Shown here: piece by piece, positions 21,451 through 63,481 of the stretch
How the letters are laid out: every line of letters begins with the position of its first letter
Position numbering within the stretch: the stretch's first letter is position 1
Made by a program: the position numbers and the translations under genes
Assembly (NCBI RefSeq): GCF_003334305.1
Contig: NZ_QOWS01000008.1
Strand: one strand, 5' to 3'
From: Escherichia coli
Lineage (GTDB): Bacteria > Pseudomonadota > Gammaproteobacteria > Enterobacterales > Enterobacteriaceae
Length of the DNA: 64,000 nucleotides
The notes under the pieces: model-generated
Told to the model about the DNA's origin: nothing
Database searches by the model: none
The model's input: only the letters and a program-made list of their open reading frames with translations

Positions 21451-22632
21451 ATGACTAACAGCAATCGCATCAAGCTCACATGGATTAGCTTTCTCTCCTA
21501 CGCACTGACTGGTGCGTTGGTTATTGTCACCGGGATGGTGATGGGAAATATCGCCGATTATTTCAATCTGCCTGTTTCCAGTATGAGTAACACCTTCACC
21601 TTCCTCAACGCCGGCATTTTAATCTCTATCTTCCTCAACGCCTGGCTGATGGAAATCGTCCCGTTGAAAACGCAGTTACGTTTTGGCTTTCTCCTGATGG
21701 TGCTGGCGGTTGCCGGTTTGATGTTCAGCCACAGCCTGGCGCTGTTCTCGGCGGCGATGTTCATTCTCGGGGTGGTCAGCGGCATCACCATGTCGATTGG
21801 TACATTCCTGGTAACACAAATGTATGAAGGGCGTCAGCGCGGTTCCCGCCTGTTATTTACCGACTCCTTCTTCAGTATGGCTGGGATGATTTTCCCAATG
21901 ATCGCCGCGTTTCTACTGGCGCGCAGCATTGAGTGGTACTGGGTTTATGCCTGCATCGGGCTGGTGTATGTCGCTATTTTTATTCTGACCTTCGGCTGTG
22001 AGTTCCCGGCGCTGGGCAAACATGCGCCAAAAACGGATGCTCCGGTAGAGAAAGAAAAGTGGGGGATCGGCGTACTGTTTCTCTCTGTTGCGGCGCTGTG
22101 CTACATCCTCGGTCAGTTAGGTTTTATCTCCTGGGTGCCTGAGTATGCCAAAGGCCTGGGCATGAGCCTGAACGACGCGGGCACGCTGGTGAGTAACTTC
22201 TGGATGTCATACATGGTCGGCATGTGGGCGTTCAGCTTTATTCTTCGCTTCTTTGATTTGCAACGCATTCTGACCGTACTGGCTGGTCTGGCTGCGATTC
22301 TGATGTACGTCTTTAACACCGGAACACCAGCACATATGGCGTGGTCAATTCTCGCTCTGGGCTTCTTCTCCAGCGCGATCTATACCACCATCATCACCCT
22401 GGGTTCACAGCAGACCAAAGTACCGTCGCCAAAACTGGTTAACTTTGTCCTGACCTGCGGAACCATCGGTACTATGTTGACCTTTGTGGTTACCGGCCCG
22501 ATTGTTGAACATAGCGGTCCGCAGGCGGCACTGCTTACAGCAAACGGTCTGTACGCTGTCGTCTTTGTGATGTGCTTCCTGTTAGGTTTCGTCAGCCGTC
22601 ACCGTCAGCATAACACCCTGACCTCTCATTAA
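21451..22632 (+). CDS. tsgA: MFS-type transporter TsgA
   Basis: 393-aa [49 protein letters not shown]...; about 12 hydrophobic segments. Confidence 0.9.
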
Positions 22633-22792
22633 TTGCTAATGCCGGACGGCACTATCGTCGTCCGGCCTTTTCCTCTCTTCCCCCGCTACGTGCATCTATT
22701 TCTATAAACCCGTTCATTTTGTCTATTTTTTGCACAAACATGAAATATCAGACAATTCCGTGACTTAAGAAAATTTATACAAATCAGCAATA

Positions 22793-22808
22793 TACCCCTT
22801 AAGGAGTA
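22793..22808 (+). promoter_or_regulatory. NarL/NarP 7-2-7 heptamer pair of the nirB promoter
   Basis: TACCCCT-TA-AGGAGTA: inverted TACYYMT heptamers, spaced from the FNR site as expected for the nirB promoter architecture. Confidence 0.65.
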
Positions 22809-22821
22809 TATAAAGGTGAAT

Positions 22822-22835
22822 TTGATTTACATCAA
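22822..22835 (+). promoter_or_regulatory. FNR binding site of the nirB promoter
   Basis: TTGATTTACATCAA is an exact FNR consensus (TTGAT-N4-ATCAA), centred about 65 bp upstream of the nirB ATG. Confidence 0.85.
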
Positions 22836-22893
22836 TAAGCGGGGTTGCTGAATCGTTAAGGTAGGCGGTAATAGAAAAGAAATCGAGGCAAAA

Positions 22894-25437
22894 ATGAGCA
22901 AAGTCAGACTCGCAATTATCGGTAACGGTATGGTCGGCCATCGCTTTATCGAAGATCTTCTTGATAAATCTGATGCGGCCAACTTTGATATTACCGTTTT
23001 CTGTGAAGAACCGCGCATCGCTTATGACCGCGTACACCTCTCGTCTTACTTCTCTCACCACACCGCCGAAGAGCTGTCGCTGGTGCGCGAAGGCTTCTAC
23101 GAGAAACACGGCATCAAAGTTCTGGTCGGCGAACGCGCTATCACCATCAACCGTCAGGAGAAGGTGATTCACTCCAGCGCCGGGCGTACCGTTTTTTATG
23201 ACAAGCTGATCATGGCGACCGGTTCCTACCCGTGGATCCCGCCAATCAAAGGTTCTGATACTCAGGACTGCTTTGTCTATCGCACCATTGAAGACCTCAA
23301 CGCCATTGAATCCTGCGCCCGTCGCAGCAAACGCGGTGCCGTTGTTGGTGGCGGCCTGTTAGGTCTGGAAGCCGCTGGCGCGCTGAAAAACTTAGGTATT
23401 GAAACCCACGTTATCGAATTTGCCCCTATGCTGATGGCGGAACAGCTTGATCAGATGGGTGGCGAGCAGCTGCGTCGCAAAATCGAAAGTATGGGCGTGC
23501 GCGTTCACACCAGCAAAAACACCCTTGAGATTGTGCAGGAAGGTGTCGAAGCGCGTAAAACCATGCGTTTTGCCGACGGCAGCGAGCTGGAAGTTGACTT
23601 TATCGTCTTCTCTACCGGTATCCGTCCGCGCGATAAGCTGGCAACCCAGTGTGGTCTGGACGTTGCTCCGCGTGGGGGTATCGTCATTAATGATTCCTGC
23701 CAGACTTCCGATCCGGATATCTACGCCATCGGTGAATGCGCAAGCTGGAACAACCGTGTATTTGGTCTGGTAGCACCAGGCTACAAAATGGCGCAGGTCG
23801 CCGTTGACCATATTCTGGGTAGCGAAAACGCCTTTGAAGGTGCTGACCTTAGCGCCAAGCTGAAACTGCTGGGCGTAGACGTAGGCGGTATTGGTGATGC
23901 GCACGGTCGCACGCCTGGCGCACGTAGCTACGTTTACCTCGACGAAAGTAAAGAGATCTACAAACGCCTGATTGTCAGCGAAGACAACAAAACCCTGCTC
24001 GGTGCGGTACTGGTGGGCGATACCAGCGACTACGGTAACCTGCTGCAACTGGTGCTGAACGCTATCGAACTGCCGGAAAACCCGGATTCCCTGATCCTGC
24101 CAGCACACTCTGGTAGCGGCAAGCCGTCTATCGGTGTTGATAAACTGCCGGACAGCGCGCAAATCTGCTCCTGCTTCGACGTCACCAAAGGTGATCTGAT
24201 TGCTGCCATCAACAAAGGCTGCCACACCGTTGCGGCGCTGAAAGCTGAAACCAAAGCGGGTACTGGCTGCGGTGGCTGTATCCCGCTGGTTACTCAGGTA
24301 CTGAACGCGGAACTGGCGAAACAGGGCATCGAAGTTAACAACAACCTGTGCGAACACTTTGCTTATTCGCGTCAGGAACTGTTCCATTTGATCCGCGTTG
24401 AAGGCATTAAAACCTTCGAAGAACTGCTGGCGAAACACGGCAAAGGCTACGGTTGTGAAGTTTGTAAACCAACCGTCGGTTCGCTGCTGGCCTCCTGCTG
24501 GAACGAATACATTCTGAAGCCGGAACATACTCCGCTGCAGGATTCTAACGATAACTTCCTCGCTAACATCCAGAAAGACGGCACCTACTCGGTGATCCCG
24601 CGCTCTCCGGGCGGTGAAATCACCCCGGAAGGGCTGATGGCGGTAGGTCGTATCGCGCGTGAATTTAATCTCTACACCAAGATCACTGGCTCCCAGCGTC
24701 TGGCGATGTTTGGCGCACAGAAAGACGATCTGCCGGAAATCTGGCGTCAGCTGATTGAAGCTGGCTTCGAAACCGGTCATGCCTATGCGAAAGCACTGCG
24801 TATGGCGAAAACCTGCGTGGGTAGCACCTGGTGCCGCTACGGTGTTGGCGATAGCGTCGGCCTCGGCGTGGAACTGGAAAACCGCTACAAAGGCATCCGT
24901 ACGCCGCACAAAATGAAGTTCGGTGTCTCCGGCTGTACCCGTGAATGTTCAGAAGCTCAGGGTAAAGACGTGGGTATTATCGCCACTGAAAAAGGCTGGA
25001 ACCTGTATGTTTGCGGTAACGGCGGCATGAAACCGCGTCATGCGGATCTGCTGGCAGCGGATATCGATCGCGAAACGCTGATCAAATATCTCGACCGCTT
25101 CATGATGTTCTACATCCGTACCGCCGACAAACTGACGCGTACCGCGCCGTGGTTAGAAAACCTCGAAGGCGGCATCGATTATCTGAAAGCGGTGATCATT
25201 GACGACAAACTGGGGCTGAACGCACATCTGGAAGAAGAGATGGCGCGCCTGCGTGAAGCGGTAGTGTGTGAGTGGACTGAAACGGTCAATACACCGTCCG
25301 CGCAGACTCGCTTCAAACACTTCATCAACAGCGACAAGCGTGACCCGAACGTACAGATGGTGCCAGAGCGCGAACAGCACCGTCCGGCAACGCCGTATGA
25401 ACGTATCCCGGTAACTCTGGTGGAGGACAACGCATGA
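22894..25437 (+). CDS. nirB: NADH-dependent nitrite reductase large subunit
   Basis: 847-aa ORF MSKVRLAIIGNGMVGHRFIEDLLDKSDAANFDITVFCEEPRIAYDRVHLS...; FAD/NAD dinucleotide folds, Fe-S and siroheme motifs. Confidence 0.97.
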   Translation: MSKVRLAIIGNGMVGHRFIEDLLDKSDAANFDITVFCEEPRIAYDRVHLSSYFSHHTAEELSLVREGFYEKHGIKVLVGERAITINRQEKVIHSSAGRTVFYDKLIMATGSYPWIPPIKGSDTQDCFVYRTIEDLNAIESCARRSKRGAVVGGGLLGLEAAGALKNLGIETHVIEFAPMLMAEQLDQMGGEQLRRKIESMGVRVHTSKNTLEIVQEGVEARKTMRFADGSELEVDFIVFSTGIRPRDKLATQCGLDVAPRGGIVINDSCQTSDPDIYAIGECASWNNRVFGLVAPGYKMAQVAVDHILGSENAFEGADLSAKLKLLGVDVGGIGDAHGRTPGARSYVYLDESKEIYKRLIVSEDNKTLLGAVLVGDTSDYGNLLQLVLNAIELPENPDSLILPAHSGSGKPSIGVDKLPDSAQICSCFDVTKGDLIAAINKGCHTVAALKAETKAGTGCGGCIPLVTQVLNAELAKQGIEVNNNLCEHFAYSRQELFHLIRVEGIKTFEELLAKHGKGYGCEVCKPTVGSLLASCWNEYILKPEHTPLQDSNDNFLANIQKDGTYSVIPRSPGGEITPEGLMAVGRIAREFNLYTKITGSQRLAMFGAQKDDLPEIWRQLIEAGFETGHAYAKALRMAKTCVGSTWCRYGVGDSVGLGVELENRYKGIRTPHKMKFGVSGCTRECSEAQGKDVGIIATEKGWNLYVCGNGGMKPRHADLLAADIDRETLIKYLDRFMMFYIRTADKLTRTAPWLENLEGGIDYLKAVIIDDKLGLNAHLEEEMARLREAVVCEWTETVNTPSAQTRFKHFINSDKRDPNVQMVPEREQHRPATPYERIPVTLVEDNA

Positions 25438-40756: not shown

Positions 40757-40799
40757 TCCCCTCACCCTAACCCTCTCCCCAAAGGGGCGAGGGGACCGT
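40757..40799. repeat. 43-bp palindromic interspersed repeat, copy 2 (identical to 33740-33782)
   Basis: tcccctcaccctaaccctctccccaaaggggcgaggggaccgt, same orientation, just downstream of the trpS stop. Confidence 0.85.
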
Positions 40800-40814
40800 C
40801 CGAGCGTTTTGATA

Positions 40815-58869: not shown

Positions 58870-58966
58870 CGACGTAATGGCCTGATGTGCTGCGCTTACC
58901 AGGCCTGTGAAATAAATCGCAAATTATTGTTGGTCAGATACAGCGTCGTATCCGTTAAAAGAGTTG

Positions 58967-62692: not shown

Positions 62693-62711
62693 TCAGCTGA
62701 TATCTCATTGA

Positions 62712-62742
62712 CCCCTTATCCAAACGGATAAGGGGTTTTTTT
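62712..62742 (+). terminator. Intrinsic terminator of pckA
   Basis: ccccttatcc-aaac-ggataagggg followed by ttttttt: a perfect 10-bp stem with a 7-T run. Confidence 0.9.
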
Positions 62743-62764
62743 ATATCTGATTAGCTATCAATAT

Positions 62765-62784
62765 GTACACGGTACACTTATAAT
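62765..62784 (+). promoter_or_regulatory. Putative promoter/operator of the toxin-antitoxin pair
   Basis: Tandem hexamers GTACAC-G-GTACAC abut a perfect TATAAT (62779-62784), 25 bp upstream of the toxin ATG; AGGA RBS at 62798-62801. No strong -35. Confidence 0.4.
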
Positions 62785-62808
62785 AATCAATAGACCGCAG
62801 GATGCATT

Positions 62809-63126
62809 ATGTTCACCTTTATTGAACTACAAGGATTTAGCAAACGCCGCCAGTTATTGTTACCTGATGATGAGTTCCGGGCTTTTCAGGAACTACTCAT
62901 TCAAGATCCCACTGCCGGTGACATTATCGCAGGCACAGGCAGTTTTAGAAAAATTCGCTGGAACCGTTCTGGAATGGGGAAACGGGGTGGCATTCGGATA
63001 ATTTATTACAACGTAACACGCAATGGCCGAATTTATCTGGCGTTGATTTATCCTAAAAATGAACAGGATGATTTAACAGAAGAACAAAGAAAGGCATTGA
63101 AACTATTGTCAGAGAAGCTGCTTTAA
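62809..63126 (+). CDS. RelE/ParE-superfamily toxin of the HigB-2 type (toxin-first TA module)
   Basis: 105-aa ORF MFTFIELQGFSKRRQLLLPDDEFRAFQELLIQDPTAGDIIAGTGSFRKIRWNRSGMGKRGGIRIIYYNVTRNGRIYLALIYPKNEQDDLTEEQRKALKLLSEKLL. The blocks G-GxxRKIR, GKRGG-RIIYY and YLLxIYxKNE--DL match my recollection of Vibrio HigB-2-like toxins. Lies upstream of an HTH antitoxin; GC about 40%. Confidence 0.75.
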   Translation: MFTFIELQGFSKRRQLLLPDDEFRAFQELLIQDPTAGDIIAGTGSFRKIRWNRSGMGKRGGIRIIYYNVTRNGRIYLALIYPKNEQDDLTEEQRKALKLLSEKLL

Positions 63127-63184
63127 TGTTGAAGCTCCACAAATTCCACCATGGTCGAAATGCCAACGGAGACATTGAAAACAG

Positions 63185-63481
63185 ATGAAAGATGAATTAT
63201 TTGCTGATCTTCTTGCCAGCGCAGAAGAAATGGTACGCATCGAAAAGGGTGAAGAAACGCCTGAACCAGAGCACGTCCATACTTTTAGCGAGATCGATGT
63301 AAAAGCGATCCGTGAAGCAACGGGTTTACGTCAGCAAGATTTTGCTGTCGCCGTAGGGGTAAGTTATGACCTGGTCAAAAGCTGGGAAACCAAACGCCGT
63401 CAGCCTACCGGAGCACCTCGAAAATTGCTCCTGCTTTTGCAAGCGAATCCTTTCATTATCAATCAATTGAAAACAATCTAA
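63185..63481 (+). CDS. XRE-family HTH antitoxin (HigA-2-like)
   Basis: 98-aa ORF MKDELFADLLASAEEMVRIEKGEETPEPEHVHTFSEIDVKAIREATGLRQQDFAVAVGVSYDLVKSWETKRRQPTGAPRKLLLLLQANPFIINQLKTI; HTH signature in LRQQDFAVAVGVSYDLVKSWE; 58 bp downstream of the toxin gene. Confidence 0.75.
   Translation: MKDELFADLLASAEEMVRIEKGEETPEPEHVHTFSEIDVKAIREATGLRQQDFAVAVGVSYDLVKSWETKRRQPTGAPRKLLLLLQANPFIINQLKTI

Follow-up and report, generated by a model that had tools for sequence, protein, structure and literature searches.

The window (the whole 64,000-nucleotide stretch of Escherichia coli DNA analysed here) contains, at 22721-22870, the canonical promoter (pnir) of the E. coli nirBDC-cysG operon, which is controlled by oxygen and by nitrate/nitrite and is among the best-studied of bacterial promoters. 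The product of the operon is an NADH-dependent nitrite reductase. The promoter lies within a 261-bp intergenic gap between the end of a 393-aa open reading frame at 22632 (tsgA) and the start of an 847-aa open reading frame at 22894 (nirB), both assigned from the list of open reading frames and the K-12 annotation, and the reading frames of nirB, nirD and nirC (847, 108 and 268 aa in the same list) follow downstream of the promoter sites. The gene order tsgA-nirB-nirD-nirC-cysG is kept, and the window as a whole is colinear with positions 3471118-3535003 of K-12 MG1655 at approximately 97-99% identity. The features of the region are as follows, with positions in brackets relative to the transcription start.

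22641..22666, + strand: likely intrinsic tsgA terminator, a hairpin of 10 pairs (8 of them G-C) followed by a T-run; the tsgA stop ends at 22632
22721..22735 (-149..-135, centre -142), no strand assigned: perfect match to the degenerate Fis consensus, GNNNAWWWWWTNNNC, from a consensus scan; same in K-12
22782..22794 (-88..-76), + strand: IHF core-like element AATCAGCAATATA, 12/13 to WATCARNNNNTTR, from a consensus scan; same in K-12
22793..22799 (-77..-71), + strand: NarL/NarP heptamer 1, TACCCCT, from the sequence; TACCCAT in K-12
22798 (-72), + strand: polymorphic base at heptamer position 6, C here and A in K-12
22800-22801: heptamer spacer TA, from the sequence
22802..22808 (-68..-62), - strand: NarL/NarP heptamer 2, TACTCCT (AGGAGTA when read on the + strand), from the sequence
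22822..22835, no strand assigned: FNR site TTGATTTACATCAA, perfect TTGAT-N4-ATCAA, centre -41.5; same in K-12
22857..22862 (-13..-8), + strand: -10 hexamer TAAGGT, from the sequence and PMC4216584; same in K-12
22870, + strand: inferred transcription start (+1), 24 nt before the ATG
22894..25437, + strand: nirB, first gene of nirBDC-cysG, 847 aa, from the list of open reading frames, the K-12 annotation and colinearity

The transcription start was set at 22870 because the nirB start has been placed 23 or 24 nt ahead of the ATG (citing Jayaraman 1987; PMC4216584) and the FNR site of nirBDC-cysG at -41.5 (PMC3688515), the first of these sources also giving TAAGGT as the -10 element. With this numbering the FNR site falls at -41.5 and the 7-2-7 site TACCCCT-TA-AGGAGTA (22793-22808) is centred at -69.5, as published. 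The FNR site begins 13 nt after heptamer 2 and ends 58 nt upstream of the nirB ATG (22894). Both TACCCCT and TACTCCT, the reverse complement of AGGAGTA, fit the heptamer consensus TACYYMT. The pattern TACYYMT-NN-AKRRGTA has a single match on both strands of the 64 kb, where 0.00 would be expected over 100 shuffles, and TTGAT-N4-ATCAA likewise has a single match against 0.08 expected; this uniqueness relative to the shuffled expectation indicates that neither motif is a chance match. A scan of the promoter region with the sigma-70 consensus returned no stand-alone promoter and no recognisable -35 element. The absence of a -35 element is usual for an activator-dependent promoter.

Upstream of the activator sites, matches to the Fis and IHF consensus sequences fall near the positions given in the literature, and the interval from -156 to -73 is the same as in K-12. 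The Fis match at 22721..22735 agrees with the Fis I site at -142 reported by Browning et al. 2000, and further Fis-like matches are centred near -97 and +22. A second IHF core-like 13-mer was found at -124..-112 by the same consensus scan, while the 13-mer at 22782..22794, the 3' end of which runs two bases into NarL heptamer 1, would correspond to the published IHF site at -88. The general positions of the Fis and IHF sites are those of PMC10853779, and the exact numbers are in part those reported by Browning et al. 2000-2008. At the level of sequence, the architecture of the nirB promoter is confirmed as intact. The first-pass annotation had proposed an intact nirB promoter here, consisting of TACCCCT-TA-AGGAGTA followed by a perfect-consensus FNR site; both elements lie exactly where it had placed them, the FNR site is indeed a perfect TTGAT-N4-ATCAA, and the K-12 colinearity, the sites, their spacing and the -10 element all agree with that identification.

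Alignment of the intergenic region with K-12 MG1655 (NC_000913.3, 3493750-3494010) revealed three differences over 261 bp, at 22638 (-232; A in the window, C in K-12), 22713 (-157; T in the window, C in K-12) and 22798 (-72; C in the window, A in K-12). Between -156 and the ATG, the alignment shows no difference other than the C/A at -72. The K-12 heptamer is thus TACCCAT, as the earlier annotation had it, and the comparison it had suggested, alignment with the reference promoter, returned differing rather than identical heptamers. Its further statement that the change stays within TACYYMT holds for both alleles, C and A at heptamer position 6 both being covered by M.

The tsgA terminator is likely, on the basis of its predicted hairpin, to form the upstream boundary of the nirB regulatory region. 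The difference at 22638 falls 6 nt beyond the stop codon of tsgA, immediately 5' to the stem of the terminator, and there the A of the window is the rarer state, with C present in K-12, in 10 of 11 sampled diverse E. coli and in three of four other Escherichia (the fourth being gapped). It is this base, and not the one in the NarL site, that is the window's less common SNP within the tsgA-nirB intergenic region. Two - strand open reading frames over the promoter and nirB start (22765..23172 and 22827..23018) were set aside as mechanical reading frames antisense to a conserved gene and its promoter.

The proteins expected to bind these sites, and the anti-repression that they bring about, are taken from the literature, in which the pnir model derives from Tyson 1993/1994 and Browning, Cole and Busby 2000, 2004 (cited in PMC10853779 and PMC3688515). 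According to this work pnir is repressed by Fis, NarL relieves the repression and FNR then activates (PMC10853779, PMC3688515), with NarL at -69.5 clashing with and displacing IHF at -88 (PMC10853779). The nirB site is one of four classic 7-2-7 sites (PMC2718512), the consensus for NarL/NarP heptamers is TACYYMT (PMC4886647), and the palindrome TACCCCTAAAGGGGTA has been described as a 7-2-7 site of high affinity and was co-crystallised with a dimer of the NarL C-terminal domain (PMC4549865). Applied to the window, the model would have FNR bind at -41.5 under anaerobiosis and switch transcription on as a class II activator, with IHF (at about -88) and Fis restraining this FNR-dependent activation; in the presence of nitrate or nitrite, a dimer of phosphorylated NarL or NarP would bind the 7-2-7 site at -69.5 and displace IHF, so that repression would be lifted. 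Full-text literature searches for the K-12 heptamer TACCCAT together with NarL, for the heptamer consensus and for pnir7150 returned only a citation of the consensus and unrelated matches.

To establish how the two alleles at -72 are distributed, 5,426 complete E. coli genomes were searched with 55-mers centred on the SNP, such that each 28-base megablast seed had to span it. The C allele was found in 4,207 genomes (78%), including O157:H7, IAI1, B strain and UPEC genomes, and the A allele of K-12 in 1,216 (22%). The two counts sum to 5,423 of the 5,426 genomes, leaving almost none with another state, and this sum indicates that the 55-mer design worked. The 78/22 split counts assemblies and should not be read as a population frequency, the RefSeq sample being biased towards K-12 derivatives and clinical clones. 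All 11 E. coli promoters sampled across the range of 95-99% identity carried C. Six genomes with the A allele, hand-picked from a spread-sampled list of matches, were the same as K-12 over 375 bp, except for one with an additional SNP (TACCTAT), and, judged from these few genomes, the A allele seems to have arisen once, on one haplotype. Recurrent origin of A alleles was rejected on the same sample, in which 6/6 genomes share the K-12 haplotype.

Species-representative genomes were scanned with the pattern TAC-N3-T-N2-A-N3-GTA-N13-TTGAT-N4-ATCAA, which identified at least 120 loci, and in at least 71 of these a distance of 57-58 nt separates the FNR site from the downstream nirB start (MSKV[RK]...). 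The occurrence of the same spacing at 71 loci, among the matches listed, indicates that the architecture and spacing of the promoter are conserved across the Enterobacteriaceae. Across these 71 species-level nirB promoters among the matches listed, position 6 of heptamer 1 was A in 41 and C in 30 and never G or T, while position 6 of heptamer 2 was C in 66 and A in five. The heptamer TACCACT, with C at position 6, was present in all four of the other Escherichia species among the matches listed (E. whittamii, Escherichia sp. E1V33, Escherichia sp. MOD1-EC7003 and a separate genome-collection entry titled E. coli SCPM-O-B-8794). Among the same matches, 14 of the 15 loci labelled Citrobacter had TACCCCT or TACCTCT, hence C at this position, and in at least four of these Citrobacter loci the 16-mer was the same as that of the window, TACCCCTTAAGGAGTA.

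Since C is carried by the majority of E. coli, by other Escherichia and by Citrobacter, and A was found on one haplotype, C at -72 is by parsimony the ancestral state and the A of K-12 a derived minority allele, a polarity that comes from sequence comparison with the four other Escherichia species and Citrobacter among the matches listed (E. albertii, E. fergusonii and Salmonella are not among these). The first-pass annotation had described the window as carrying one heptamer variant, a natural single-base change in an activator site. One base does differ from K-12, as it had said; the variant, however, is that of K-12, the window having the majority C (4,207 versus 1,216 genomes), and its framing of the window as the departing sequence is reversed by the genome counts, the outgroups and the haplotype of the A allele.

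A second departure within the same heptamer was observed at position 5. The heptamer TACCACT, with A at -73, occurs in 128/5,426 E. coli genomes, and in the species-level scan at loci L016, L080, L084 and L118 (other Escherichia); it is also seen at L128 (E. coli YL03, position 165). An A at this position falls outside TACYYMT and is a larger departure from the consensus than the SNP at -72. Among the 71 species-level nirB promoters in the matches listed, position 5 was A in eight first heptamers and 26 second heptamers, and on account of these counts the natural nirB sites are better described by TACYNMT than by TACYYMT.

With regard to function, the C/A change at -72 is probably neutral, as the first-pass annotation had held, a reading inferred from the comparative data together with the published high-affinity site containing TACCCCT. 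The C allele leaves a single mismatch between the half-sites (TACCCCT and TACTCCT), the A of K-12 two. The comparative data point to C being a neutral or at most a mildly favourable base. The alternative, that the change is functionally significant, altering the affinity of phosphorylated NarL or NarP or the displacement of IHF such that the strength or threshold of pnir in K-12 differs from that of the species-typical promoter, is unlikely. The base is part of heptamer 1 in an activator site that has been defined by experiment, and 4 bp separate it from the IHF core-like element, whose 3' end overlaps the heptamer; it might therefore affect the competition between the two proteins without altering the fit to the consensus. 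The closer agreement of the half-sites in the presence of C, and the strong preference for C at position 6 of heptamer 2 (66/71 species-level promoters among the matches listed), are further points in its favour, as is the altered activity of the EHEC nrf promoter following the exchange of one base in its -10 element (PMC5434802), which indicates that strain SNPs in such promoters can matter. Against this, TACYYMT admits both bases, position 6 of heptamer 1 alternates freely between A and C among the matches listed (41 to 30 over 71 species), and both alleles persist in many E. coli genomes. A small effect of the base on the competition between NarL and IHF is about as improbable as this alternative, or slightly more so. 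The more specific proposal that the species-typical C allele, with its more symmetric site, binds NarL or NarP measurably better or displaces IHF more readily than the A of K-12 is doubtful and somewhat less likely than functional significance in general; if it were true, most E. coli would induce nirB at a different nitrate/nitrite threshold from the one described in K-12 studies.

Four known systems come closest to this promoter. In K-12 pnir itself, which occupies the same tsgA-nirB locus, the FNR site, heptamer 2, TAAGGT and the Fis/IHF consensus matches are the same as in the window, whereas heptamer 1 is TACCCAT instead of TACCCCT and positions -157 and -232, far upstream, also differ. 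The nirB promoters of Citrobacter amalonaticus S646, C. sedlakii, C. youngae CCUG 30791 and Citrobacter sp. Cu233 share with the window the 16-bp NarL/NarP site, the 13 nt between this site and the FNR site, and a distance of 58 nt between the FNR site and the ATG of nirB, but in some of these species the four central nucleotides of the FNR site differ, as does the upstream Fis/IHF region. The engineered palindromic narG -89/-89 site TACCCCTAAAGGGGTA, characterised by EMSA and co-crystal structure (PMC4549865), contains the heptamer TACCCCT as well, likewise arranged 7-2-7, and has been described as a site of high affinity; it differs from the window site in being synthetic and fully symmetric, with an AA spacer, and in standing outside the nirB context. 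The E. coli nrfA promoter (pnrf; Godfrey et al. 2017, PMC5434802) has the same regulators, FNR, NarL/NarP and IHF/Fis, and likewise has promoter SNPs between K-12 and pathogens, but it belongs to another operon, and the EHEC SNP that raised its activity is in the -10 element whereas that of the window is at a degenerate position of a NarL heptamer.

Two other explanations concern the origin of the C in the window. That it is a derived, strain-specific mutation of a K-12-type site is highly improbable: the sole point in favour is that K-12, the usual reference, differs at -72, and the reading is refuted by the spread of C over 4,207 genomes from O157:H7, IAI1, the B strains and UPEC, its presence in other Escherichia and in Citrobacter among the matches listed, and the location of the sampled A genomes on one haplotype. 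A sequencing or assembly error at 22798 is the least probable explanation of all and is refuted by the identical 55-mer in 3,807 independent complete genomes, several genomes also matching the window at 100.0% (rounded) over 24 kb.

Taken together, the preferred reading is that the locus is the canonical pnir, that the C at -72 is the ancestral majority allele, that the A of K-12 is derived and arose on one haplotype, and that the difference most likely has little or no regulatory effect, a joint reading to which we assign a probability of roughly 0.93. The promoter and the polymorphism are already known and there is nothing new in kind, the difference being common, old and within the consensus. 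The base difference matters little, being a widespread polymorphism at a position where the activator site is degenerate. It nevertheless illustrates a bias of the reference: K-12 holds a minority derived allele, so that differing from K-12 does not by itself make a sequence a variant, and K-12 pnir, the model for activation by remodelling of a repressive nucleoprotein complex, carries a derived A at -72. Where pnirB is modelled or engineered from the K-12 sequence, for example in anaerobically inducible expression vectors, the species-typical heptamer is TACCCCT.

Several further differences from K-12 were observed elsewhere in the window. Between pck and envZ there is a 787-bp insertion (62694-63480) containing a two-gene module, with open reading frames at 62809-63126 (+) and 63185-63481 (+), which the RefSeq annotation of matching genomes describes as a RelE/ParE-family type II toxin and a NadS-family HTH protein. 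For the second reading frame the NadS score was 75 bits, above the cut-off of 60; no NCBIfam match was returned for the first. At a coverage of at least 80% the module is present in 1,325/5,426 complete E. coli genomes and hence is a common accessory toxin-antitoxin-like cassette, which K-12 is without. At 36617/36618 the window is without 680 bp of K-12 php (K-12 positions 3507735-3508414), leaving a remnant open reading frame of 186 aa at 36232-36792 (-), the first 75 residues of which match the N-terminus of the phosphotriesterase-related protein family (profile positions 1-75 of 292). This remnant reads on to the yhfU stop, and php thus appears to be inactivated or fused to yhfU here. Two smaller changes may involve REP-type repeats, namely the replacement of approximately 110 bp of the yhfZ-trpS intergenic region at 40700-40809 and a 72-bp insertion at 58892-58963 near the hslO/yhgE boundary. 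Finally, over the interval 12000-36000, NZ_LR134226.1, NZ_CP128963.1 and other genomes that are otherwise 100% identical match the window in two pieces spanning approximately 29.5 kb, indicating that these genomes have approximately 5.5 kb of extra DNA within this interval that both the window and K-12 are without.
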